Part shown: positions 36,829-56,982 of the stretch, piece after piece
Layout: each line of letters begins with the position of its first letter
Position numbering within the stretch: the first letter of the stretch is position 1
Assembly (NCBI GenBank): GCA_040218735.1
Contig: JAVJQW010000011.1
Coordinates: forward strand, 448,001-512,000
Direction of reading: 5' to 3'
Source of the DNA: Deltaproteobacteria bacterium
GTDB lineage: Bacteria; Myxococcota; Kuafuiibacteriia; Kuafuiibacteriales; Kuafuiibacteriaceae
Length of the DNA: 64,000 nucleotides
Notes under the pieces: model-generated
What the model was told of the DNA's origin: nothing
The model's input: only the letters and a program-made list of their open reading frames with translations
The model's database searches: none
Made by a program: the position numbers and the translations under genes

Positions 36829-37527
36829 TCAGGGCTCGGCGTCGAGCGCGGCGAGCCGAGCCTCGAGCGCAGCGGCGCGCGCCTCGGCGGCCGCAGCGCG
36901 AGCTTCCGCGGCCCCCGCGTGCTCCTCCGCCGCGTCGGCGCGAGCTTCCGCCTGCCGGCGCGCGTCGATCTGCTCCGCGAACGTCCTGAACGCGGCGCCG
37001 TCCGGCCCGAAGATCCGCAGCGTCTCCTTCAGTTCGAACCGAATCCGCAGACGCGGGCTCACGAAGCCGTCCATCGAGTCGACGTCCACGAAGCGCTCGC
37101 CCTCACGCACCCAGCCGGAGAGCGTCTCCCGCTCGGGGTCGTAGTAGTACAGCTCCTCGACGCCGTACTGCTCGTAGAACCGCAGCTTCTTGATCAGCTC
37201 CGCGGTGGTGTTCGACGGCGAGATGATCTCGAAGACCACCTGCGGCGCGACGTCACCCTCCATCCACTGGATGTACGAAGGCCGAATCGCCTTGGGCCGC
37301 CCCAGCACGACGAACACGTCCGGCGCCATGCAGAGCTTCGGATCGCCTCGCACGGGGTACCAGAACATGTCGGCCCCGACGAAGTCCTCGAGCATCGCAT
37401 CCAGGTTCCCCTGAATGGTCACGAGCCATTCGTACTGAGCGCCCCCCTCCGCCATCGGTTTGCCGTCGCTGGATGGATAGACGATGTCGTCTTCTACGTA
37501 CGGCGCGCTGGCATGCATGTGGCGCAT
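36829..37527 (-). CDS. Uma2/DUF820 family endonuclease-like protein with C-terminal coiled coil
   Basis: YPSSDGKPMAE, APDVFVV, PQVVFEIISPSN, KLRFYEQYGVEELYYYDP; AEARA repeats. Confidence 0.9.
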   Translation of the reverse strand: MRHMHASAPYVEDDIVYPSSDGKPMAEGGAQYEWLVTIQGNLDAMLEDFVGADMFWYPVRGDPKLCMAPDVFVVLGRPKAIRPSYIQWMEGDVAPQVVFEIISPSNTTAELIKKLRFYEQYGVEELYYYDPERETLSGWVREGERFVDVDSMDGFVSPRLRIRFELKETLRIFGPDGAAFRTFAEQIDARRQAEARADAAEEHAGAAEARAAAAEARAAALEARLAALDAEP

Positions 37528-39477: not shown

Positions 39478-41181
39478 TCAGCGCGGGCAGTGCGGCACGT
39501 AGGTCACCGTGATCTCGGATCCCGGCGGCGGGATGCGACGTTCGCTGAACGTGATCCATCGCCCGTCCGGATCGTACGCGTAGCCATCGAACGCGTCGCG
39601 CGGGACGAACGCGCCATCGACGCGGACGTCGAGCGTCAGCTCGTCGGCGTGGTGCTTCAACCCGAAGCGGCTACGCGGCCGAAACACGTCGAGGCCAAGC
39701 GACGTCAGCAACGGCGACCAGTCGTCCGCGCAGATCCCGAAGAACATGCCCCCCGTCGCGTCGACCATCTGGGAGTAGCGCAACGCTCGGTTGGCGAACG
39801 GGCACCCCATCGGGAGCGGACCGGCGATCGCGTGGAAGCGCACGCGACTTCGGTCGAAGTCCTTCGCCGCGAACATCGCGTCGAGGAGGACGTCGTCCGG
39901 CAGCAGTGACTGATCGTCCTCGTCGCTGATCGCGACGATCGCGAGGTCCGCGTGCGGACGCAGGAACCCGGCGTTCGGGTTGCTCGACGTCTGGTCGTCC
40001 GACTGCGCGCGCTCCAGCGCGATGCGCGTCGCACCGGCCGCCGTCTCCGTCGCGAACCCCATCGTCCCCACCTCGACCATGCAGGAGAACGCTTCGTTGC
40101 GCGCGTCGTTGTCCAGGTACGACGCACCGACCACCGGCGGATGCGGCGCACACGTCCTGAAGACACCGGCCCCACTCTCGAGCTCCTGCGCCTCGATCAC
40201 CGCCATCTGGTAGTCGGCCCCGAGCCCCTCGGCGTAGTCGACGAACTGACCGAGGTTCGCGACGAGCCGCGCCTGCTCCTCCTCCATCGAACCGCTGGAG
40301 TCGATCGCCCACAGGATGTCGACCGCCACCTCCGTGCCCTGGTGGAACGTCTCGACGATCGGCGACGCGTCGATCCCACGCCCCGCCAGGTTGACCTCGG
40401 AGACCCCCTCGGGGGCGTCGTGGAGCAACCTCAGCACATCCCGCTGCTCGCCGTAGGCGGTGGGCGTGTAGCGGAACGCCACCTCGGCGCGCTGGTTGCG
40501 CTCCAGAACGAAGGGCCCCCGCTGCTGAATCGTCCCGCCGACCTCGATGTACTCGACCTCGAACGGCGACGGCGGGACGACGGTGCCCACGTGCAAGAGC
40601 CCGTACCCCACGTTCTTCACGCGCAGGTACGCGAGCTCCGACGCACAGAACGATGGCGAGCCCGGACCGTCCGTCGACTCGTAGACGACGTCGCCGAACT
40701 CGAGGAGCGTCCGGTCCAACTCGATGCGCGGAGCAACCACGTCACCGCGCATCGTCAGGCGCAAGTGAGCTTGCGCTTGGTCGTCGAACGCAAACTGCAC
40801 CGAGCCCGACTCCTCGGGCCAAGTGTCGGAGCCGACGTAGACGACCGTGAGCGTGTACGTGTCGCGCGCGCGCAGCGTCGTCGGTGGCGACGCGTAGCCC
40901 TCCATCGAGAAACCGCCGCTGTCGCTGTCGAGCGTCATCGACGTGAGCTGCACGTCCCAGTCGCAGTGGCTCCGAATGATCGCCTCGCGTTCGTGTCGCT
41001 CGCCCGCCTGCTGATTCACGAACCGAAGGAAGTCCTCGTCGAGCTCGATGCACGCGTACCGCGCGGACTCACCGATCCCCGGCAACGCCGGCCCGCCGTC
41101 GCGACCCTCGAGGTCCACCGAGCCGGCGACACACCCGGTCGCGAGCGCGCAGACCGGAAGGAAGCTCCACGCGACGTGCAT
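39478..41181 (-). CDS. lipoprotein with Ig-like (choice-of-anchor D/ASH-like) domains and vWA domain
   Basis: Lipobox ATGC; LEFGDV..VKNVG; VDILWAIDSSGSM MIDAS; ISDEDDQS. Confidence 0.8.
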   Translation of the reverse strand: MHVAWSFLPVCALATGCVAGSVDLEGRDGGPALPGIGESARYACIELDEDFLRFVNQQAGERHEREAIIRSHCDWDVQLTSMTLDSDSGGFSMEGYASPPTTLRARDTYTLTVVYVGSDTWPEESGSVQFAFDDQAQAHLRLTMRGDVVAPRIELDRTLLEFGDVVYESTDGPGSPSFCASELAYLRVKNVGYGLLHVGTVVPPSPFEVEYIEVGGTIQQRGPFVLERNQRAEVAFRYTPTAYGEQRDVLRLLHDAPEGVSEVNLAGRGIDASPIVETFHQGTEVAVDILWAIDSSGSMEEEQARLVANLGQFVDYAEGLGADYQMAVIEAQELESGAGVFRTCAPHPPVVGASYLDNDARNEAFSCMVEVGTMGFATETAAGATRIALERAQSDDQTSSNPNAGFLRPHADLAIVAISDEDDQSLLPDDVLLDAMFAAKDFDRSRVRFHAIAGPLPMGCPFANRALRYSQMVDATGGMFFGICADDWSPLLTSLGLDVFRPRSRFGLKHHADELTLDVRVDGAFVPRDAFDGYAYDPDGRWITFSERRIPPPGSEITVTYVPHCPR

Positions 41182-41255
41182 TCCACCATTGTGTACCGAG
41201 ATGGAGCCGCGGTTGGAGCGCAAGACCGCGCGCACACGGTAGAACTACATCCCCC

Positions 41256-43541
41256 TCAGAGCGCACACCCAGGCATGTACGTCACCACGATCTGCGATCC
41301 GGGCGGAGGCACCGCGTTCGGCGCGAACACGACGAGCCGTCGCGACGGCACGTAGATCCACCCGTCCGCGGGGTCGTTCGCGACCGGGACCCCGTCGACC
41401 GTGACGACCAGCGTCGACTCCACGGCGGGCCGCGACAGGTACCACTGATCCTCGGGCGTGAAGACGTCGAGCCCGAGGTTCTGGAGCAGCGGCTGCCAGT
41501 CGTCCTCGCAGATGCTGTAGAACTGCCCGTTCGTCTGGCGCGCGAGCGTCGAGTAACGATGCCCGGCCGACGCCGTCGCGCACCCGGTCGGCAACGGGCC
41601 CGCGATTGCGTGGACCGACACACGATTCCGTTGCCCGTTCTTCACGCCGTAGAAGAAGTCACGCAGCACGATGTCCGGGCTCGACGACTGGTCGTCCTCG
41701 TCGCTGATCGCCACGATGACCAGCTCCGCGTCCTCGCGTACGAACCCCGCGTTCGGGTTCGTCAGCGGATTCTGATCGGGGTCCGTCGCCCGCCGCAACG
41801 CCTCGCGCGCGCCCCCGAGACCGGACTCCAACCCCACACCGTTGACGCCGAGCGCGAACATACACGCGAAGACCTGATCGCGAACGGCGCTCGTCATGTA
41901 GTTGGAGTCGATGATCGGGGGGTGCCCGTCGCACTGCTCGAACGTCCCCGCGAGCGAGGAGACCTCTTCAGCCTCCGTGACCGCCATCTGGTAGTCCACG
42001 CCGTTCGCGTCCGCGTACGCGACGAACTGCGACAGGTTCGCGATCAGCTCCTCCTGCTCCTCGCCCATCGAACAGCTCGCATCGATCGCCCACAGGATGT
42101 CGACGGCGAGCGTGGCCGGCTGGTTGAACACCTCGGTGATCTGCGACCGCGGCTCGCCCTGTCCGATCAGCGCGGTGATCTGCGTCCGCTCTTCACCGTC
42201 GTGTCGGATCCGAAGCTGCCCTCGATGCTCCGCCGCCGCGGTCGGGCGATACCGCAACACGAACCGCGCCACCGCATCGACGGGGATCTCGATCGGGAGA
42301 TTCAGCTCCGTCTCGATCGTCCCACCGACGTCCACGTACGCGAGCTCGAACTCACCCGCGCTGTCGAGCTCGACCTCCCGCACCGGCAACGGCGTACGCC
42401 CGGTGTTGATCACCAGAGCCTCCATCTCCTCCGACGCACACGTCGAAGGGGAGCCCGGCCCCGCCGTCGGCTCGTAGATGACCGGCTCGAACCGGAGGAT
42501 GAACGGGTGCAACGTCCCGCGCGGCCGCACGACGAACCCCTCCAGCGCGACCGGTAGGATCGCGTCGTAGTAGTCGTCGGTCTGGATGTTGAGCAGCCCC
42601 TGCGCGAAGAAGCTGGGGCCCGGCACCGGCGAGAACCTCGCGTCCACCCGCGCGCGCGAGCTCGGCGCAATGACGATCGGGAGGTCCCGTTCGTCGACCG
42701 TGAAGCCGCCGTCGGCGCTGATGATCGACAGGTCCGTGATCGACACGATGTGGTCGCACTCGCTGACCACGTTCACGAACGACGACGCCGTGTCCCCGGG
42801 GAGGATGGTGTTGAAACGAATCACCTCGCGGTCGACCGACAGACAGCGCGATCGCTCCTGCCCCGCGAGCGTCGCGGTCGCCCGGGCACCGCCCTCCGCG
42901 CGCGCCGTGAGCTGACGAACGGGGCGCCCGCGGAACGCCGAGCCGGTGTGGCGGACGTCGACCGGGCGCGTCGCACCGGCTTCGAGGGTCAACGGGAGCT
43001 CGGGCGGGTTGGTGATCTCGAAGAACGTCTCGTCCGTCGACAGCTCCAGGAGTCTGCAGTCGGAGGTGCTCGTGTTCTCCAACCTCAGCGTCACCACTTC
43101 GTCGATCGCGAAGCTGGCGCTCGACGGCGCGAACAACAGCGCGCACGGCGCGCGGACGTCCGCGCGGATCCGGAGGCGGGCCTCTGGACGCTCCGGGTCG
43201 TTGCTCTCGAGGACGAGGGCGTCGTCGATGACACCCGGCACGGCGGGCGCGAGGCGAAGCTCGAGGCTCGCGCTGCTGTCGGGGGTGATCTGCGTCGGCG
43301 CGCCGATGACGCTGAGTTGACCGGACTCGACGAAGACCCGTGAGAAGACCAGCGCCGCGTTGCCCTCGTTCTTCACGAGGACACGGAAGCCGTCGACCGG
43401 GTCGCCGATCGTCACCGCGCCGAAGTCGACGACGGTGTCCGTCTCCGGCACGAGCACCAGCTTCGGCGCCTGCCGGGCGACCTGGTCCCCCTCACACGCC
43501 AACGCGCCGACGGCGACGAGGAGCACGAGCCACGACCGCAT
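41256..43541 (-). CDS. lipoprotein with multiple Ig-like domains and vWA domain (paralog of 39478-41181)
   Basis: Lipobox ALAC; VDFGAV..VKNEGNAAL; SNDPERP; VDILWAIDASCSM; ISDEDDQS. Confidence 0.85.
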   Translation of the reverse strand: MRSWLVLLVAVGALACEGDQVARQAPKLVLVPETDTVVDFGAVTIGDPVDGFRVLVKNEGNAALVFSRVFVESGQLSVIGAPTQITPDSSASLELRLAPAVPGVIDDALVLESNDPERPEARLRIRADVRAPCALLFAPSSASFAIDEVVTLRLENTSTSDCRLLELSTDETFFEITNPPELPLTLEAGATRPVDVRHTGSAFRGRPVRQLTARAEGGARATATLAGQERSRCLSVDREVIRFNTILPGDTASSFVNVVSECDHIVSITDLSIISADGGFTVDERDLPIVIAPSSRARVDARFSPVPGPSFFAQGLLNIQTDDYYDAILPVALEGFVVRPRGTLHPFILRFEPVIYEPTAGPGSPSTCASEEMEALVINTGRTPLPVREVELDSAGEFELAYVDVGGTIETELNLPIEIPVDAVARFVLRYRPTAAAEHRGQLRIRHDGEERTQITALIGQGEPRSQITEVFNQPATLAVDILWAIDASCSMGEEQEELIANLSQFVAYADANGVDYQMAVTEAEEVSSLAGTFEQCDGHPPIIDSNYMTSAVRDQVFACMFALGVNGVGLESGLGGAREALRRATDPDQNPLTNPNAGFVREDAELVIVAISDEDDQSSSPDIVLRDFFYGVKNGQRNRVSVHAIAGPLPTGCATASAGHRYSTLARQTNGQFYSICEDDWQPLLQNLGLDVFTPEDQWYLSRPAVESTLVVTVDGVPVANDPADGWIYVPSRRLVVFAPNAVPPPGSQIVVTYMPGCAL

Positions 43542-44562: not shown

Positions 44563-46263
44563 ATGACGAAGCTTCGCCGGTACCTCGCGCCCGCCGCGTT
44601 CGTCGCGCTCCTGCTCGTGCTCCACGTGCGCGCGCTGCTCGCCCACATGGAGAAGGCCTCCGACCCGTACTTCTTCAACGACGACGCCCGCATCCAGATC
44701 TTCCCGTTCTTCCGCTACTCGGAGCCGGCGGCCTTCGCGAACGACTACCTCGGCGACTACGCGCTCGCGCTCCTCCCGACCGGCTACCGGGCGCTGTACT
44801 GGCTCGGGGCGCACACCGTCGACGCGTTCACGTTGTCGAAGATCCTCCCCTACCCGATGTTTCTGTTCACGGTCGTGCTGGTCACGCTCGTGGCCTACCG
44901 CATCGGTCGCTACCCGGCCGCGTTCGTCGCCGCGACGATCGTGCTCGGCTCGAACCTCTACATCGAGCGCATCACCGGCGGCCTGCCTCGCTCCTTCGGC
45001 TACCCGCTCGCCGCCGCCGCGCTGTTCGCGCTGGCGTGGGGTCGGTGGCGCTGGCTCGCCGCGACCACGGTGATCGGCGCCGCGTTCTACCCGACGCTCG
45101 GGCTGTTCTCCGGATTGCTGCTCACGCTGTGGATGTTGGTCGCGCCCGCCGAGGATCGCGGCGACGCCAAGGACCTCACGCTGAAGCAACGCTTCGTCGT
45201 GCTCGCGTCGACGGCCGCGGTGTCGGCCGTGCTCCTCATCCCCCCCTCGCTGGGCTCCGCGGAGTTCGGCCCGCGCATCACGGGACGCCACTTCAAGATC
45301 TACCCCGAGGCCGGCCCGGGTGGGCTTTCGAGCGCCGAGGATCGTCCGCCCTTCTCCGCGGTGTTGCCGTCCGTCTCCAGCTTCATGGAGCGCGCGGTCG
45401 TCGGGTCCGGCGCTGCGTGGTGGCCGTGGCTCTCCGACAAGCTCACCGGGCTGAAGATGATCGTCGTCGACACGTTCCTCCTCGTGGGGTTCTTCGGCGC
45501 GTTCGTCCTCGCGCGCCGGCGCGACGACGTGCGGCGGCTCGCCCTCTTCCCGATCGCCGGAATCATCGGCCACCTCTTCGCGCGTGGCTTCGCCCCGTAC
45601 TTGTACGGGCCGAACCGCTTCGTGCTCTACACCGTGCCGCTCCTGTTCGCCGTGGTGTGTGGCATCGGACTCGTCGGGTTCGTGGAGCGATTCCTCCCCC
45701 GCCTCGACGACCTGCGAAAGGCGGCCGCCGCCGGCGGGCTGGCGCTGTTGTTCATGCTGATGATCGGCGGTCACGGGCACAAGAGCGCAGGCCTGTCCTT
45801 CGGGCTCGGACCGGCGCAGCAAAAGCTCGCCAACGCCGTCGCCGAGCTGCCGGAGGATGCGCTCGTCGGCGGGTGGCCCGATGACCCGATGAGCAACGTC
45901 CCGCTCGTGTCGCGGCGGCGCGCGCTGATCACCGGCGAGATGCACATCGCCTTCCACGTCGCGTACCTCGAACAGATGCGTGTCCGCATGCGCGCGCTGA
46001 TCGCCGCGTACTACGCGCGCTCCGCGGAACCGATCGAGAAGCTCCGCGACGAGCTGGGCGTCACGCACCTCATCGTGAACAAGGGCCACCTCACCGGGCC
46101 CGCCCCCGGCTACGCGACGCCGTACGGCGGCTGGATCCAGGCCGCGGTCGCCCGCGACAAAGGCAAACCTTACTACCTGCTCACGCACCTCGGTGCGCTG
46201 GCCGTGTACCAAGATCCGCAGTTCGCGATCCTCGACCTCTCCCGCATCCCCGCGACGCCATGA
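44563..46263 (+). CDS. polytopic membrane protein, GT-C-like glycosyltransferase architecture
   Basis: First TM followed by a DD-containing loop (FNDDARIQ); about 10-12 TMs; GGLPRSF; soluble C-terminal domain ending LGVTHLIV. Confidence 0.55.
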   Translation: MTKLRRYLAPAAFVALLLVLHVRALLAHMEKASDPYFFNDDARIQIFPFFRYSEPAAFANDYLGDYALALLPTGYRALYWLGAHTVDAFTLSKILPYPMFLFTVVLVTLVAYRIGRYPAAFVAATIVLGSNLYIERITGGLPRSFGYPLAAAALFALAWGRWRWLAATTVIGAAFYPTLGLFSGLLLTLWMLVAPAEDRGDAKDLTLKQRFVVLASTAAVSAVLLIPPSLGSAEFGPRITGRHFKIYPEAGPGGLSSAEDRPPFSAVLPSVSSFMERAVVGSGAAWWPWLSDKLTGLKMIVVDTFLLVGFFGAFVLARRRDDVRRLALFPIAGIIGHLFARGFAPYLYGPNRFVLYTVPLLFAVVCGIGLVGFVERFLPRLDDLRKAAAAGGLALLFMLMIGGHGHKSAGLSFGLGPAQQKLANAVAELPEDALVGGWPDDPMSNVPLVSRRRALITGEMHIAFHVAYLEQMRVRMRALIAAYYARSAEPIEKLRDELGVTHLIVNKGHLTGPAPGYATPYGGWIQAAVARDKGKPYYLLTHLGALAVYQDPQFAILDLSRIPATP

Positions 46264-48011
46264 GGACCACCGGCCTCGGGTGCATGCGACTGTCGAACGT
46301 CGACCGCGCGCAGGCGATCGAAACGATTCACGCCGCGCTCGACGCCGGCGTTCGGTGGCTCGACACCGCCGACGTCTACGGCCCCACCGCGCGCGACGTC
46401 GGCCACAACGAACGACGCGTTCGCGAAGCGCTCGACACCTACGGCGGCGACACCTCCAACGTCATCGTCTCGACCAAGGGCGGACTCACGCGCACCGGCG
46501 CCCGCTGGATCCCGAACGGCCAGAAGAAACACCTGGAGGCCGCGTGCGCGCGGAGCCTCGCGACCCTCGGGCACATCGACGTCTACTTCCTCCACGTCGT
46601 CGATCCCAAGACCCCGCTCGCGACGAGCGTCCGCGCGCTCGAGCGACTCCGCCGCGACGGCCACGTGAAGGCGCTGGGCCTCAGTAACGTGACGGTCGAG
46701 CAGCTGGAGGCGGCGCTCGAGATCGCGCCGATCACCTACGTGCAGATGGAGCTGGGCGTCACGTCGCCCCAAGGTTTCGAGTCCGGAGTCCCCGAGACCT
46801 GCCGCCGCCTCGGCGTACACCTCGTCGCGTCGCGTCCTTTCGGGGAAGTGAAGGGCCTGAAGAAGATCCGACGCCACGAAGTGCTCCGCACGATCGCCGA
46901 TCGGCATGACGTCACCCCGGAGGCCATCGCGCTGTCGTGGCTCTACGCGCTCGACGACGACCTGGTCGCGCTCCCCGGCGCGACCCGCCCCGAGACCGGC
47001 GCGGCGGCGGCGCGGATCGTCGCGCTCGAAGACGATGATCGTGACGCCCTCGACGACGCCTTCCCCACCGGCGTGCAGCTGTCGACGCCACGCGCCGAGC
47101 GGCGCCCTCAGGACACCGACGGCGACGTCGTAATCGTGATGGGCATGCCGGGCGCGGGCAAGACGACGCGCGCCGAAGCGTACGCAAACGACGGCTACGT
47201 TCGCATCAACCGCGACGAACGCGGCGGCACCCTCGCCAAGCTCATCCCGGAGCTGGAGCGTCACCTCGCCGCGGGTGACCGACGCATCGTCCTCGACAAC
47301 ACCTACGCCACCCGCGCGACCCGGAACCGCGTCATCGAGGCCTCGTGGCGCCACGGCGCTCCGGCGCGCTGCGACTGGGTCGCGACCTCACTGGAGGACG
47401 CGCAGATCAACGCCATCCAGCGGATGATTCAGCGACACGGGCGCCTCCTCGACGACGCGGAGGTCCGTGCGCTGAAGAAGTCCGAGCCGAACACGTTCCT
47501 CCCGCGGGTGCAGTATCGCTACCGCGAGCAGCTCGAGGCGCCGCGCGAGGACGAAGGTTTCGCGAAGGTCGAGGTCGTCCCGTTCGAACGTGCGCCGTAC
47601 GGCGAGGGCCGCGCGGTCTTCGTCGACGCCGACGCGTTCCTGTGGGGCGACGGGGGTGTCGCCATCGACGACGCGGTCGCGGACGCGCTCACGGCCTGGC
47701 ACCGCGCGGGGTTCGCGGTGTTCGGTTTGGCGTGGCTCCCGCAGCTCGCGGCGACGCCCGATCGCGTCGACGCGTGGGAGCGACAGGTCCGCGAACGGCT
47801 CGGCTTCGAGCTCCGCGCTCGCTGGTGTCCGCACCCGGCGGGCCCCGTCGCGTGCTGGTGCCGTCCCCCGCTCCCGGGGCTGGTGATCGCACACGCGTTG
47901 GAGGCCGGCGTCGACCTCGGTCGGTCACGGCTGCTCGCGACCTCGGCCGCCTACACGACGCTCGCCGCCCGCGTCGGCCTGACGCGGGTCGACGTCGACG
48001 ACCGCCCCTGA
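46260..48011 (+). CDS. aldo/keto reductase + AAA_33/PNKP-like kinase + HAD-like domain fusion
   Basis: GLGCM, LDTADVYG, STKGG, DVYFLH, LGLSN (AKR); GMPGAGKT (aa 295-302), INRD, IVLDNT (kinase); FVDADA (D456/D458), CPH..CWCRPP (HAD IIIA-like). Confidence 0.85.
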   Translation: MRTTGLGCMRLSNVDRAQAIETIHAALDAGVRWLDTADVYGPTARDVGHNERRVREALDTYGGDTSNVIVSTKGGLTRTGARWIPNGQKKHLEAACARSLATLGHIDVYFLHVVDPKTPLATSVRALERLRRDGHVKALGLSNVTVEQLEAALEIAPITYVQMELGVTSPQGFESGVPETCRRLGVHLVASRPFGEVKGLKKIRRHEVLRTIADRHDVTPEAIALSWLYALDDDLVALPGATRPETGAAAARIVALEDDDRDALDDAFPTGVQLSTPRAERRPQDTDGDVVIVMGMPGAGKTTRAEAYANDGYVRINRDERGGTLAKLIPELERHLAAGDRRIVLDNTYATRATRNRVIEASWRHGAPARCDWVATSLEDAQINAIQRMIQRHGRLLDDAEVRALKKSEPNTFLPRVQYRYREQLEAPREDEGFAKVEVVPFERAPYGEGRAVFVDADAFLWGDGGVAIDDAVADALTAWHRAGFAVFGLAWLPQLAATPDRVDAWERQVRERLGFELRARWCPHPAGPVACWCRPPLPGLVIAHALEAGVDLGRSRLLATSAAYTTLAARVGLTRVDVDDRP

Positions 48012-49591
48012 CCCGCGGGGGGGCAGTCGGCCACGGGTCGTTCGGGCTGCGCCGGCGGTTCCGGCTGCGACGGCGCACCGAGATCGGCCGTGTCGAGCTG
48101 GGCCTCGAAAGGGAGGATCAGATCGACGCGGGTCCCGCGGCCGACCTCCGAGTCGATGATCACGCGCCCACCGTGTTTACGCAGCGTCTCCAGCGCGAGT
48201 GACAGCCCGAGCCCCCGCGCGCCCTCGTGCTCGCGGGTGGTGAAGAACGGCTCGAAGATCCGCTTGTCGTGCTTCGGGTCGATGCCACACCCGTTGTCCT
48301 CGATCGATACACACACCCCCTCGTCGGTGGTGCGGGTGGTGATCGAGATTTCGTTCTCGCGTGCGTCGCGGTCGATTTGATCGACGGCCCACACCGCGTT
48401 GAGGAGCACGTTGACGATCGCCTGGACCATCTTGGTCGCATCGACGGGGAGCTCCGGCGTGGACTCCAGCTTCTGCTCGAGCCGGGCGCGGCCGACGATC
48501 GAGCTCCGCAGCAGATCACACGCCTGCTCCGCGAGCCGCGCGACATCCATGGGCAACACATCGGTCGGCTGTAGTCGCGCGAAGGCACCGAGGTCGCGGA
48601 CGATGCCCGCGATGCGCTGGATGCCGGCGATCGTGTCCTCGGCCATCTCGCGCATCCCCTGGAACCGGTCCGGTAGGTCCTCGTTGTCCAGCATCGCCTG
48701 GATGTCGCCCGGGTCGCGCTCGGCCTTGAGCGCCGCACCGAGCATCTTGAACGTCTCTTCCAACGCGACGATCTCTTCGAGCATCAGCGTGCTGTTGGCT
48801 TGGATGAAGCTCGCGGGGTTGTTGATGAGGTGCGCGACGCCCGCCGCGAGCTGGCCGATCGACGCGAGCCGATCCGCTTCGAGGAGGCGACGTTCGAGCT
48901 CGGCCGAACGCTGCCGGTCCGAGATGTCACGAATGGAGACGAGGACCGCGAGTTGCCCGTCCCACGTGATGCGAGAGGTGCGGAGCTCCGCGGAGCGGCT
49001 CTCGCCGCTGGGGCGGGTCACCTCGATCTTGGCCCCCGCCTCCGCGTCGAGCGGTAGGCCGAGCTCGACGCCGATGAGCTCCTTCGCGGGCCGGCCGAGG
49101 ATCTCGACGGTCGCGTTGTTCACGTACAGGACGACGCCGTGTTCATCGACGACGACCGCGCCGTCCGCGTTGCGCTCGACGATCGCGCGCAGCTGGCCGG
49201 CGACGCGAGAGCGCTGGGCGGCGAACATGATTCCGCTCGCTAGCGAGATCGTGTGGACGCCATCCTTCGAGACAAAATCGTCCGCACCGTTCGCGAGCAC
49301 GTTCAGTCGGAGCCGATCGTCGCTCGATGAGGTGAGCACGACGACCGGCGTCTCCGGAGCCGCTGCGCGGACGCGCTTCACGGTCTCGATGCCGTCCGAG
49401 TCCGGCAGCGCAAGATCGGTGAGGATGATGTCGAAAGTGTCAGCCGCGAGCGTGTCGACGGCGCTCGCGAGGTCGAGCACGTGCACGACCTCGAAGTCGG
49501 CGATTTCGGCGCGGTCGAGCGAACGCCGGACGATGACTGCGTCCGCGTCGAGGTCCTCGATCAGCAGAACGCGGTAGCGACCGTCGCGCAC
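47951..49591 (-). CDS. hybrid sensor histidine kinase (REC-PAS-HisKA-HATPase)
   Basis: VLLIED, TDLALPD, DFVSK; PAS; [10 protein letters not shown]; [23 protein letters not shown]. Confidence 0.93.
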
Positions 49592-49622: not shown

Positions 49623-50597
49623 TCAATCAATCGGCCCCGCTTCGGTCCGGTCCGTCTGCCCGACCCGCAAGAAACGCAGGTAGTGCAGCGCCGCCTCTTC
49701 CGGCCGCTCGACCATCGGAAGGTGCCCGCAACCGTCCATGATGACCACCACGGCGTGGGGGACGCGCGGCTGCATGACCTCGATGGACGACACGTCCAGG
49801 ACGCGGTCCGAGTCGCCCCACAGCACCAGCACCGGGACGTCGATGTCCTCGAGTACGGGTTCGAGGGGGAACGGGCGTTCCGCGAGGTCCCCGGAGATCT
49901 TGGCGTTGAACGCCCGGGTCTCGACCGCGCGACGGGCGAAATGCTCCAAGACGGGGCCCGGCAGGAAGGGGCGCTCGACGAACACGAGATCCACGATGCG
50001 CTCGTAGTCTTCGACGCTCGACGCGAGCAACGGCGTCTCACCGCGGTGCCGCGCCTGCATGACCTCGCTCTCGTTGGTCGGCGTCACGCCGGAGTTGGCG
50101 AAGAACGCGACGCTCGTCACGTGGTCGCGGTGTTTGACGGCGTACGCCCCGACGAGGTTGCCGCCCATGGAGTTGCCGACGACGTGGTGGGGCTCGAGGC
50201 CGAGCGCGTCGGCGAAGGCCGCCAACCGATCCGCCTGCGAGGCGATGTCGTAGGTCGCGGCTTCGTCGCGGGTGCTCTCGCCGAAGCCCGGGAGGTCCGG
50301 GATGACCACGTGGTAGTCGCCGAAGTGGCGGGCGAAGCGCGTCCAGTTGTCCTTGTCGGCGGAGAAGCCGTGGACCATGAGGATCGTCGGTGACGCTTCA
50401 GCGTTGGCTTCGAGGTAGACGATGCGGTGCCCGTCGACCTCGACGACCTTCTGCTCGAGGCCAGCGCGCCCACGCTCGAGGCGCATCGTCGCGTCCAGGG
50501 CGAGGCCCGGCGACAGCCACACGGCGAGGCCGCCGACCACCGCGACGAGCACGAGCGCGAGGGCGATCCAGCGGAGGATGCGGGCGGTGCGTGCCAT
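49623..50597 (-). CDS. exported alpha/beta hydrolase (lipase family)
   Basis: N-terminal TM/signal; HGFS, PDLPGFG, GNSMGG, WGDSD, CGHLP. Confidence 0.9.
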   Translation of the reverse strand: MARTARILRWIALALVLVAVVGGLAVWLSPGLALDATMRLERGRAGLEQKVVEVDGHRIVYLEANAEASPTILMVHGFSADKDNWTRFARHFGDYHVVIPDLPGFGESTRDEAATYDIASQADRLAAFADALGLEPHHVVGNSMGGNLVGAYAVKHRDHVTSVAFFANSGVTPTNESEVMQARHRGETPLLASSVEDYERIVDLVFVERPFLPGPVLEHFARRAVETRAFNAKISGDLAERPFPLEPVLEDIDVPVLVLWGDSDRVLDVSSIEVMQPRVPHAVVVIMDGCGHLPMVERPEEAALHYLRFLRVGQTDRTEAGPID

Positions 50598-50678
50598 GGT
50601 CTGGAGGGGTCAGTTAGCCCGCTCGAACGCCGTTCGTCCAATTGCGCTGCGACCGGGGACCGCACTAGATCACGCGAC

Positions 50679-52592
50679 ATGCGGAAGGGGTTGATCGCGT
50701 CGTTGGCCGGGCTGGTGTTTGCGTGCGCCCCTGGCTCGGACGAGCCGGCGAACCACGAGCCGCACGACGAGATGCCGGAGGCGATGGCGCCGCTGACGCA
50801 GTCCGCGGAGGACGGTCCGGTCGCGGAGGGGGTCTATCGAGCACCGGACCTCGCGGCCTTTGCGAGAGCCGACGGGTTCGCGCTGGGGCCCAAGATCCCG
50901 CTGCCGTCCGTCGCCTCGCGCGCGACGATCTGGGTGACGCTCTCGGACGCGACCGACGCGACGCCGATCGTCTTCGCGCAGGCGGGCTGGTCCAACGGCC
51001 AGAGCGGACCCTTCGTTCCTCTGGCGGAGATCGGCGCGGTCGGCGCCGAGCGGGTGCTCGCCGTGGACCTCGAGACCGCGGCGACTTCGCTCACGCTGCG
51101 CGTCGCCGAGAACGCAATCGCGCGCGTGAAGACGATGCGGTGGGCGGCGTCGGTCCCGCTCGAGGCGAGCCTGCTCGGCGCGCTCGCCGACGCGGAGCCG
51201 GTTCAGGACTCGGTCGTCGCGGCGCGGTCCACGTGGTCGGCGCTGCCGGCGCGCTGCGGTCCGAACGACGTCGCGCCGACGACGATCGTCCTGCGGGCCG
51301 AGGAGACGCCGACCGACGAGGTGGCCGCCCTGCGCGCGCTGCAGCTGCGCGATCGGGACGGGCTCGGGTGGTGTGACGTTCGACCGTCCTACGTGGTGGG
51401 CGCGACGCAGGTGTTCATGGGCCGCGGCACGCGACGGGCGGCGGCCGAGGCGACGGCAGAGGCCAACGCGGGTCGCGTGGCGGTCTCGGTGCTCGGCTGC
51501 ACGCCGTCCGGCGCGACGGAGGCGAACCTCTTCGCGGCGCTCGACGAGCTGGTGCGTCGCTTCTCGATCACGTCGGCGGACGACGTCGTGGTGATGGCGT
51601 CGCCGGTCTGCGCGGACGTCGCGGGGCTGGAGGAAGCCAAGGCGCGCTGGGTCGCGACGGATCCCTTCGACACGATGCCGCCGCCTCCACCCCCACCTCC
51701 TCCGCCGCCGCCGCCTCCGACGATGGGGACGATCGAGGGCGTGGTCGAGGACGGGTCGATGCCCGGCGTGCCGATCGAGGGCGCTCGGGTGATGTGTGCG
51801 TGTGGTGCGTCGACGACGACCGGCGTCGACGGGCGCTTCACGCTCGAGACACCCGTCGGTGCGCAGGCCTTGGTCGTCACGAAGATGGGGTTCGACGACG
51901 GGAGCGCGGCGGTGGACGTGATGGGCGGCGCGACGTCGAACGTGACAGTGACGCTGACACCCGAGGTGATGATGAACCCGGGCGTGAGCGTGATCGACCA
52001 CGCTTACCTGATCGATCGGTGGGGCGGCGTGAATGCGGACCCGACGATGTTCCCCGAGACGCAGGACGGCTTTCAGGCCTACCTCGACGCGGTCGGCGTG
52101 ACGTACTTCGCGGCGTGGGAGTACGTGGTGCCGAACAACGCGAGCGTGGCGGCGAGCTGCGGGTACACGATTCTTCTTCCGGACCGTTCGATGTGGCCGC
52201 GCGCGGCGGCGCTCGGGTTGTTGGCGGATCAGCTGCGGTCGCTCGTGAACGAACCGGTGACGCTGCGGAACTGGTGGCGACCGCCCTGCTACAACGAGGG
52301 CGTGGGCGGGGCGGCGAACGGCGACCACCCGGACGGCGACGCGCTGGACCTCGACTTTCGAAGCGCCACGAGCCGCGCCGCGGCGCAGCAGTACCTGTGC
52401 AACAACTACTGGAGCCAGGACTTGGTCGCGCCGGAGGACATCGCGCCGGGAAGCGGGTTGAATCCGCGGCTGAACATGTCGGTCGGGCTCGGGGGCGTGA
52501 CGATCCACCTTGGGCTGCTGTCGCAGAACGGGCGGCGCTTCTGGAAGTACGCGTCGTACACGCAGGAGCCGAGCTCGGGGAGCTGCTGGTAG
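50679..52592 (+). CDS. lipoprotein: degenerate PGRP/amidase_2-like + poly-Pro + carboxypeptidase-regulatory-like + peptidase M15A domain
   Basis: Lipobox VFAC; ARSTWSA..GWCDV..VFMGRG; GTIEGVVED..PIEGARV..TGVDGRF; WWRPPCYNEGVGG..HPDGDALD..TIHLG. Confidence 0.75.
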   Translation: MRKGLIASLAGLVFACAPGSDEPANHEPHDEMPEAMAPLTQSAEDGPVAEGVYRAPDLAAFARADGFALGPKIPLPSVASRATIWVTLSDATDATPIVFAQAGWSNGQSGPFVPLAEIGAVGAERVLAVDLETAATSLTLRVAENAIARVKTMRWAASVPLEASLLGALADAEPVQDSVVAARSTWSALPARCGPNDVAPTTIVLRAEETPTDEVAALRALQLRDRDGLGWCDVRPSYVVGATQVFMGRGTRRAAAEATAEANAGRVAVSVLGCTPSGATEANLFAALDELVRRFSITSADDVVVMASPVCADVAGLEEAKARWVATDPFDTMPPPPPPPPPPPPPPTMGTIEGVVEDGSMPGVPIEGARVMCACGASTTTGVDGRFTLETPVGAQALVVTKMGFDDGSAAVDVMGGATSNVTVTLTPEVMMNPGVSVIDHAYLIDRWGGVNADPTMFPETQDGFQAYLDAVGVTYFAAWEYVVPNNASVAASCGYTILLPDRSMWPRAAALGLLADQLRSLVNEPVTLRNWWRPPCYNEGVGGAANGDHPDGDALDLDFRSATSRAAAQQYLCNNYWSQDLVAPEDIAPGSGLNPRLNMSVGLGGVTIHLGLLSQNGRRFWKYASYTQEPSSGSCW

Positions 52593-52593
52593 T

Positions 52594-55320
<2,727 letters not shown>

Positions 55321-55334
55321 GGCGCGACCGCACC

Positions 55335-55568
55335 TCACCGTTCGAGCATCCGAATGCGCCCGCGCACCCGGTGGCGGCGCCCGGACGCCTCCGTCGTCAC
55401 CGACCCGCGCGCCGCCCCCTGCACCACGTGCAACGCGGAAGTCGCGCGCCCGGCCGCGGCGGCGAGGTCCGCCTCTTGTTTCGCCGCGCCCGTCGCCGTG
55501 GGCTTCGCGTCGCCGCAGCCCGACACGACGACGGCGAGGAAAGCCCAAGCGCATACGTGTATTCGCAC
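55335..55568 (-). CDS. small lipoprotein upstream of the collagen gene
   Basis: [18 protein letters not shown] lipobox; stop 14 nt before the collagen ATG. Confidence 0.6.
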
Positions 55569-55665
55569 GGTCCTCGAATCGGCCGCACCGCCTCCGCGCG
55601 ACAGTCATCGACGTCCGACGTTTCGGATTGAAACACCGAGTGGGTGTTGAACCCGCGGCGGCGAC

Positions 55666-56982
55666 GTGTTGCCTTCCGTCGCGGTGCGCCGACTCCTCGC
55701 ATGCGGGCTCGCGATCCTCGGCGCCTGTGTCCCGACCGCACCGCGGGATCGCGCCTACGTCTCGGACGCCATCCAGGAACGCACCGGCGCAGCGACCGGC
55801 GACGCGTCGCGCGTCGAACCCACCGCCGCACCCAACGTCCGCGTCGACGACGGCGTCACCGAAGACGAGGCCGTGCGCATGGCGCTGTGGAACAACGCCG
55901 AGCTCCACGCCACGCTCGAAGACCTCGGGTTCGCACGCGCCGAGCTCTACCGCGCGGGGGCCCTCCCCAACCCGACGCTCTCGACGTTCCTCCCGCTCGG
56001 CCCCAAACAGTGGGAGTTCACGATCGCTTGGGCGATCGACTGGCTCTGGGGTCGCCCCTACCGCGTCGCCGCCGCGAGCCTCGACATGGAGCGCGTCGCG
56101 GAGGAGCTCGTCGCACGCGGCGTGGAGGTCGCCCGCGACGCGCGCATCGCCCACGCCAACGTCGTGCTCGCCGAGCGGCAGGACGTCCTCGCCCGCGAAG
56201 CGGCGAAGGCCTGGGATGCCATCGCGCACCTCGCACGCGTCCGGCGCGCCGCCGGGGCCGCGTCGCTCCTCGAGGTGAACGCCGTCGAGACCGACGCGCG
56301 CGCCGCGAAGATCGAGGCGGACCGACGCACCCTGCTCGTCCGCGCCGCGCACGCGCGCCTGCGCGAGGTGCTCGGCGCCGAAGACGTCGTCGACGTCATC
56401 CCCCCGACCGGCGCCGCCACCGTGACCGCCTCGCTCGAAGACCTCGAAAAGGTCGCCCTCGCCGCGCGCCCCGAAGTGCGTGCGGCCGAGCTCGCGGTCG
56501 AAGCGGCCGGCGAGCGCGCCGGCTGGGAGGTCGCGCGCATCTTCCAGCTCATCGGGCAGCTCGACTTCAACGCCCAAGGATTCGCCGGCGGCCCCGAGGC
56601 CGGCCCCGGCCTCATCCTCACGATCCCGCTCTTCGATCAGAACCAGGCCGGCCGCACGCGCGTCGACGCCGAGCTGCGCGCCGCGTCCTGGCGCTACATC
56701 GGCGTGCGTCAACGTATCTTGCGCGAGGTCGCCGAGGCCTACGCCGCGCTCACGATCGCCAAGACCACACGCGAGCGCTGGCCGGCGGACGTGCTCGAAC
56801 CGTTGGAGCGCAACGTCCAGCTCGCGACACACGCGTACGAAGCCGGCGGCGCGTCGTACCTCGCCGTGCTCGACGCCAACCGCCGACGCATCGAAGCCAA
56901 ACAACGCGAGGCCGAGCTGTTCGCCGAGGAACGCCGCGCGCTCGCCGAGCTCGCACGCAGCGTGGGGAGGATGCCCGAATGA
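55666..56982 (+). CDS. TolC/OprM-family outer-membrane efflux lipoprotein
   Basis: Lipobox LGAC; [39 protein letters not shown]. Confidence 0.9.

Follow-up and report, generated by a model that had tools for sequence, protein, structure and literature searches.

A widespread family of aldo-keto reductase, kinase and HAD fusions resembling PNKP-type end-healing kinases

Enzymes that join a polynucleotide kinase to a HAD-type phosphatase are known in more than one arrangement. In mammalian PNKP (PDB 1yj5, 3zvl, 3u7e) the two domains stand in the order HAD-kinase, together with an FHA domain, and the HAD is active; in the polynucleotide kinase/3′-phosphatase of phage T4 (PseT) the order is kinase-HAD. 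The general base of the mouse kinase is described as Asp396; one of its DNA-binding surfaces includes Arg395 and Thr423, and a second includes Arg482/Lys483, while PFK2 and UMP/CMP kinase are described as having Gly at the Asp396 position (PMC2764422). The RNA 5′-hydroxyl (5′-OH) kinase of Mucorales (PDB 9d8a, 9drz) is described as a single-domain, GTP-specific enzyme of tRNA splicing (PMC11571804). Here we report on a gene in which a kinase of this kind is preceded by an aldo-keto reductase (AKR) and followed by a HAD domain. It lies in a 64,000-nucleotide stretch of a Myxococcota genome (contig JAVJQW010000011.1, positions 448,001 to 512,000, assembly GCA_040218735.1), hereafter the window. 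We found no literature on such a fusion in a search that left out supplements and most subscription papers; in the parts of the sources available, the term ‘aldo’ is absent from two phage reviews and ‘reductase’ from a review of DNA ends.

The reading frame of the fusion (46260..48011, + strand) is open over its full length and its product has 583 residues (P0001). It is one real gene: single-copy in the 11.6-Mb genome, with a G+C content at third codon positions of 0.90 that matches the adjacent genes. Pfam recognizes Aldo_ket_red at residues 5-265 (E 4e-43) and AAA_33 at residues 290-406 (E 5e-11), and AlphaFold2, run with 24 sequences, gives one compact model of the three-domain chain, with a mean local confidence (pLDDT) of 91.9 and a global score (pTM) of 0.87. 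Both the AKR and AAA_33 are present in 115 of the best 120 homologues, which are about 590 residues long; the architecture is therefore not a chance fusion.

The kinase domain (residues 288-443; 47121..47588, +) carries all of the motifs listed in a preliminary description made from the sequence alone, namely the P-loop GMPGAGKT (295-302), NRD (317-319, including R318-D319), DNT (D346-N347-T348) and R352/R355, together with lid residues N384/R388 and a C-terminal PxxxEGF. Compared on its own with the PDB, it matches mouse PNKP with E 8e-13 and the Rhizopus RNA 5′-OH kinase with E 1e-5; everything else, small-molecule kinases included, has E ≥ 0.26. The kinase-HAD model has a pLDDT of 94.7. In the fold search mouse PNKP (3zvl) leads, with Z 17.2, a root-mean-square deviation of 2.5 over 144 aligned residues and 31% identity by structure, followed by the Lichtheimia RNA kinase (Z 17.1) and the bacterial Pnkp kinase (16.1), while Kti12 (14.9), PSTK (14.5), PFK2 (13.8) and gluconate kinase (13.6) score lower. 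Among viral structures, the top matches are mostly polynucleotide kinases. A Mucorales kinase is thus the second-best match in both sequence and fold, and its essential catalytic Asp is described at the same position (PMC11571804). T4 Pnkp was found by fold (Z 12.9); unlike the fusion it has no AKR, its HAD is of another subtype, and its sequence match is confined to the P-loop region (E 0.27; PHROG 505 E 4e-5).

Residue equivalences were worked out from the PDB-search alignment with mouse PNKP. The P-loop lysine is K301, and R318, D319 and T348 correspond to Arg395, Asp396 and Thr423. These three residues are invariant in all three groups of the family (273/273, 44/44 and 137/137 proteins, the first being fusions with a catalytically dead HAD and the last stand-alone kinase-HAD proteins), and R355 and R388 are likewise invariant in the 273 dead-HAD fusions. 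Stand-alone members largely retain the duplex-contact residues of PNKP; the Lys483 position is K in 132/137 of them, and R in 236/273 dead-HAD proteins. Sequence and predicted fold therefore support the earlier proposal of an AAA_33/PNKP-like kinase, that is, one that groups with polynucleotide kinases and not with small-molecule kinases.

The third domain (47607..48008, +) is HAD-IIIA-like, as had been proposed, and of the GmhB/HisB-N type. A single sequence identifies it weakly (NCBIfam GmhB E 0.046; no relevant PDB match). With a family profile it matches GmhB (E 8e-16), HisB-N (7e-6) and, weakly, the PNKP phosphatase (0.02), and its fold agrees (GmhB Z 15.4, deviation 2.6, 135 residues aligned; HisB-N Z 13.7). 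GmhB/HisB-N proteins are described as having four HAD motifs and a CxH/CxC zinc cap (PMC9798254). The fusion shares their fold and the cap with its six-residue spacing (CxH-x6-CxC; C523, H525, C532 and C534, within CPH 523-525 and CWCR 532-535; 47826..47861, +), but it has lost the Ser/Thr, the Lys and the motif-IV Asp, is joined to a kinase and has no heptose or histidine context. D456-A-D458 is kept, and four of the six catalytic residues are gone: motif II S/T-N reads A491-W492, the Lys is P536, the motif-IV GD is AT and the last Asp is Y565. The preliminary description had recognized the losses of Lys and motif IV and had missed the other two. Judged by these residues, the HAD is catalytically dead in the window protein and across its clade. 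GmhB or histidinol phosphatase function, as given in source labels, was ruled out on the same losses.

With mammalian PNKP the fusion has in common the kinase domain, the equivalents of Asp396, Arg395 and Thr423 and a HAD-IIIA partner, and its relatives with an intact HAD match Pfam PNK3P; the kinase-phosphatase architecture seen in the preliminary description thus has a real basis. It differs in its kinase-HAD order, in an N-terminal AKR, in the absence of an FHA domain, and in its HAD, which has the GmhB cap and, in this clade, is dead. The whole protein scores 55.5 bits against NCBIfam TIGR01663 (bifunctional PNKP; cut-off 502.8), and the HAD 13.2 versus 178 bits for PRK08942. The family, real and widespread, therefore resembles a PNKP-type end-healing kinase yet fails membership of both bifunctional PNKP and GmhB/HisB-N.

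The AKR domain, a TIM barrel (residues 5-265; 46272..47054, +), scores 147.9 bits against PF00248 (cut-off 24), and its top Foldseek matches are all AKRs. Its catalytic tetrad is in place where it had been read, in DTADVY (D35, 46362; Y40, 46377), TKGG (K73, 46476) and FLH (H112, 46593). The four residues are invariant in 105/105 full-length homologues and, in a wider set, in 223-225/225 dead-HAD and 42/42 intact-HAD fusions; they are retained, that is, even where the catalytic residues of the HAD are gone. The closest solved structures, perakine reductase (AKR13D1), AKR13B2 and the pyridoxal reductase PdxI, share with it the intact tetrad and the cofactor-side residues N143, Q162, P193 and G240, but they are only about 27-28% identical to the fusion and are all stand-alone small-molecule reductases, and their substrates are not transferable. 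On this conservation the fusion AKR is probably active as a reductase. A role in vitamin B6 salvage, considered for the likeness to PdxI, was ruled out, since the kinase lacks the ribokinase fold of a pyridoxal kinase.

A query with the kinase-HAD part retrieved 1920 proteins out of 8000 candidates scored, and in a genome pattern scan at least 626 of at least 658 matches were confirmed. Among the 78 loci retained, Acidobacteriota account for 27, Actinomycetota for 23, Myxococcota for 13 and Gemmatimonadota for 11; the others belong to four further phyla. Besides the AKR-kinase-HAD fusions and the stand-alone kinase-HAD proteins there are long forms of 740-850 residues, taken from a representative-protein search (their genome versions are from the sample of the myxobacterial phylum), in which a new N-terminal domain precedes AKR, kinase and intact HAD. 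We scored the six HAD catalytic positions in 607 distinct sequences from groups that were gathered with different queries, so that group sizes are not natural frequencies. The HAD is intact in 118/118 stand-alone proteins, 19/21 stand-alone proteins at the loci studied, 36/36 long forms and 8/281 AKR-only fusions; among sequences set apart it is intact in 0/118 likely fragments and 8/33 short or unclassified ones. Each zinc-cap residue is present in 280/281 AKR-only fusions and in 29-32/36 long forms, and Trp fills HAD motif II in 244/281 AKR-only fusions.

In a FastTree phylogeny built from a sample of 108 sequences, with two giant-virus-like proteins as the root, 47/48 dead-HAD proteins, the window protein among them, form one clade (support 1.0) that is nested in the AKR fusions (0.76), which are in turn nested in the stand-alone forms. 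A kinase-only tree gives 0.78 for the dead-HAD clade and 0.64 for the AKR fusions, with one intruder. The dead-HAD clade spans at least four phyla. The likely order of events is thus from stand-alone form to intact fusion to dead HAD, on a tree whose root is long. A search for shorter dead-HAD forms gave 518 matches, and most of the 18 inspected begin at an internal Met located in the P-loop strand and resemble fragments.

Several members of the family were observed alongside these groups. A close relative from the same bacterial family as the window's genome (L084, genome G010) carries an AKR fusion whose HAD is intact; both types thus occur in one family. The N-terminal domain of the long forms, their first ~150 residues (L151, L154-L159, L161-L164, L166, L169; P0375, P0407, P0444), is present in 36/36 scored, all with an intact HAD. 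It has no match in Pfam, PDB or PHROG; its Atlas matches are of helix-turn-helix type with scores of 0.80-0.84, at the level of a lead, and these together with its sequence pattern suggest a helix-turn-helix. One long form (L158:4877-5776, − strand; P0407) carries a further domain at its C-terminus, with weak similarity to phage primase/VirE (E 6e-5 over 55-70 residues). On giant-virus-like contigs (L091:4977-6002, L093:1841-2845) the kinase-HAD order and intact HAD motifs occur without the zinc cap. At L006, L029, L056, L066 and L078 the fusion gene lies in two frames, which may be assembly errors or real splits.

In phages, the search identified two huge-phage genomes, both unannotated (595 and 462 kb), that encode a stand-alone kinase-HAD protein with an intact HAD; this protein has 956 relatives, and those listed are ~311 residues long, mostly with Pfam PNK3P. 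This unannotated family of large phages is represented at L089:5965-6933, L090:5989-6945 and L101-L119. Phage AKRs gave 12 weak matches, and the plasmid search gave no match to the kinase-HAD. A Rnl2-type ligase is encoded in 7/10 phage records with the stand-alone form (counted without a control). Kinase-HAD proteins are described as partners of ligases of this type (PMC7824862). RNA ligase, RlaP, Tpt1 or Swiss-army-knife HAD genes occur at 5/21 phage-type loci.

To these data we give the following interpretation, at a probability of about 0.4: the fusion would be a self-contained 5′-end healing enzyme for oxidative strand breaks, whose AKR reduces a 5′-aldehyde and whose kinase phosphorylates the resulting 5′-OH. 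Abstraction of hydrogen at C5′ breaks DNA or RNA and produces a nucleoside 5′-aldehyde, with a 3′-phosphate on the other side of the break. With NADPH, the AKR would turn this aldehyde into a 5′-OH, keeping the nucleotide, and the kinase, by close homology, would phosphorylate it with D319 as general base. In intact-HAD fusions the same chain would also remove the 3′-phosphate. In the window protein the dead HAD, with its zinc cap, may persist in a structural or end-binding role, and 3′-phosphate removal would be taken over by 3′-phosphatases of the ExoIII family or LigD; ExoIII and LigD do remove 3′-phosphates. A ligase would then seal the nick. The long forms hold AKR, kinase and 3′-phosphatase, which would be the three activities needed for a ligatable nick; in the dead-HAD forms, the two activities not provided by other enzymes would remain.

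C5′ is described as the most attacked position, and its 5′-aldehyde, which neocarzinostatin also generates, as abundant and persisting for days; the only repair described for it in the part of the source available is non-specific long-patch base-excision repair (BER) (PMC12564780). In RNA the 5′-aldehyde is described as the main hydroxyl-radical product, and borohydride as converting 5′-aldehyde ends into 5′-OH in DNA and RNA alike (PMC4227780). On chemical grounds, the nucleoside 5′-aldehyde would be the one lesion whose reduction gives a kinase substrate, and it would fit better than abasic (AP) sites or 3′-phospho-α,β-unsaturated aldehyde (3′-PUA) ends. These two and methylglyoxal were the substrates first put forward; their reduction would give nothing for the kinase to act on, and we have replaced them. 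More tentative is the full form of the proposal, i.e., a direct, loss-free reversal of 5′-aldehyde breaks in which the AKR acts on the DNA or RNA end itself, coupled to the kinase and, in the long forms, to the 3′-phosphatase and a probable helix-turn-helix, so that a break from C5′ oxidation or an enediyne becomes a ligatable nick by one chain.

The evidence for end healing covers domains, residue states and family structure, and from these we infer every activity and the substrate. We count in its favor the PNKP-like sequence and fold of the kinase, the PNK3P matches of intact relatives, the retention of the AKR tetrad, the co-carriage of Rnl2-type ligases in phages, the primase-like C-terminal domain in one lineage, and neighbors from BER or non-homologous end joining (NHEJ) at six loci. 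The last are six genes at independent loci among 255 independent adjacent genes, five of them co-oriented with the fusion: LigD primase-polymerase (in two lineages), an ATP-dependent DNA ligase (L174:2228-3772, whose stop overlaps the fusion start by GTGA), SRAP, a UDG-family gene and an AlkZ-like glycosylase. A seventh repair neighbor, beside a UvrD helicase, is probably an AddAB-type gene. In the window's genome we found two RtcB along with two LigD primase-polymerase domains and three ExoIII-like matches, but no match to PF09414 (Rnl2-type RNA ligase); because LigD and RtcB are present and an Rnl2-type ligase is not, DNA is the likelier target there. Of five other carrier genomes, three match PF09414, in one case strongly, and Ku is present in three.

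A number of observations weigh against this interpretation. A repair-gene neighborhood had been set as a test in the preliminary description, and against a control of 150 genes out of 490 distal ones, which holds Fpg, RecO and Lhr, the adjacent genes show no enrichment: repair genes of any family number 7/255 versus 3/150 (p 0.75), and BER/NHEJ genes 6/255 versus 1/150 (p 0.27). (Pfam scans of 322 adjacent genes covered 129, part of 62, and 89.) An enrichment computed for six families picked from the adjacent matches (6/255 versus 2/556, p 0.014) was post hoc and was discarded, as the pre-specified control removed it. The gene is also patchy, with strong matches in 4/40 relatives, in 32/301 genomes from the phylum of a myxobacterial carrier and in 8/201 from the class of an actinobacterial carrier, many of the sampled genomes being incomplete. 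In PNKP, basic surfaces for duplex DNA are formed by Arg403/Arg432 and by Arg482/Lys483; the Lys483 position of the window protein is E423 (with R422 adjoining), and the Arg432 position varies across the family. Nothing in the AKR sequence points to a nucleic-acid enzyme: its active-site loops are those of ordinary stand-alone AKRs, and the alignment reveals no fusion-specific basic patch. AKR active sites sit in a pocket, and we know of no AKR shown to act on a polynucleotide. Finally, 18/21 phage-type loci have an NAD+ or ADP-ribose gene within ~6 kb. Of the end-healing idea as originally framed, then, the kinase grouping, the dead HAD and the intact-HAD relatives stand, and the repair neighborhood and the named substrates do not.

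Ordinary AKR loops would suit a true polynucleotide kinase joined to a general aldehyde-detoxifying AKR for co-expression, the two catalyzing no consecutive steps and acting instead on products of the same oxidative damage, i.e., 5′-OH ends on the one hand and methylglyoxal, base propenals or furfural on the other. All of the evidence for a PNKP-like kinase serves this explanation equally. Four stand-alone AKRs are 37-41% identical to the fusion AKR and have the same loop motifs, and the two annotated ones are found in ordinary metabolic surroundings. Genes for glyoxalase, GFA, peroxiredoxin and aldehyde dehydrogenase turn up repeatedly near the fusions, in counts made without a control. We nevertheless consider it doubtful, because hundreds of genomes from different phyla retain the fusion, which is modeled as one compact unit, and because a generic AKR would add little in a genome that holds five further AKR-like matches. 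Somewhat less likely is the repair of small metabolites derived from NAD+ precursors or ADP-ribose, where kinase and phosphatase would interconvert a nucleoside or sugar phosphate and the AKR would reduce the aldehyde form. The genes near the phage-type kinase-HAD include NAPRTase/NAMPT, Prs, NadE, CinA, NADAR, OGFr, PARP, ARH and Tpt1, and NAPRTase, CinA, NADAR or OGFr directly adjoins it in 12/21 loci (140 open reading frames scanned, several loci near-duplicates, no control); moreover, the closest solved relative of the HAD, GmhB, is a sugar bisphosphate phosphatase. However, the kinase is nearest to polynucleotide kinases, with uridine, gluconate and PFK2 kinases scoring lower, the duplex-contact residues are largely kept in stand-alone members, and no NAD gene is linked to the fusions at bacterial loci. 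NAD+ and RNA-repair genes are also described as intermixed in islands of large phages (PMC7824862, PMC9503650).

Two further explanations are improbable. The AKR, through NADP(H), and the dead HAD with its zinc cap might mainly sense redox state or ligands and thereby turn on the kinase during stress, as the better keeping of the cap in AKR-only fusions than in intact long forms, and the Trp in motif II, would suggest; the near-invariance of the four AKR catalytic residues argues instead for turnover. Slightly less probable again is an AKR that reduces the aldehydes of AP sites or 3′-PUA against cross-linking while the kinase acts separately. SRAP, UDG-family and AlkZ-like genes adjoin fusions, and an ExoIII gene lies two genes off, but such neighbors are not enriched over the control. 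On chemical grounds, reduction would leave the block in place and yield no 5′-OH, and the fusion to a kinase would thus go unexplained.

Over 190 bacterial loci the end-healing candidate has no conserved operon partner, the largest clusters of neighbors being common paralogue families. In the window, an upstream gene for a hydrophobic, membrane-like protein (44563..46263, +; start codon estimated; no Pfam family) overlaps the fusion start by ATGA and is translationally coupled to it, and the same upstream neighbor occurs only in a genome of the same genus (L081). A convergent hybrid histidine kinase gene (47951..49591, −; open reading frame and Pfam) overlaps the 3′ end of the fusion by 61 nt. 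Neither is a conserved partner. A promoter scan at the locus gave no signal exceeding shuffled sequences, and the anti-phage defense models of PADLOC-DB 2.0 matched 0 families for 4/4 proteins at E 0.01. Elsewhere the window encodes a putative endonuclease of the Uma2 family (36829-37527, −), adjacent paralogues with a common C-terminal domain (39478-41235 and 41256-43541, −), the second with ASH/Ig-like domains, a protein that looks secreted, has a poly-proline linker and weakly matches peptidase M15 (50427-52592, +), and a very long collagen-like protein of Gly-X-Y repeats (52594-56904, −).

If the end-healing interpretation is true, an enzyme that reduces the 5′-aldehyde would represent new repair chemistry, directed at what is described as a major, long-lived radical product in DNA and RNA (PMC12564780), and it would be a useful reagent to map or rescue oxidized ends. 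The stand-alone, fully intact fused and dead-phosphatase versions of the family allow a side-by-side comparison. The family also shows a phosphatase becoming, by the losses in its motifs, a zinc-capped pseudoenzyme while spreading through soil phyla.

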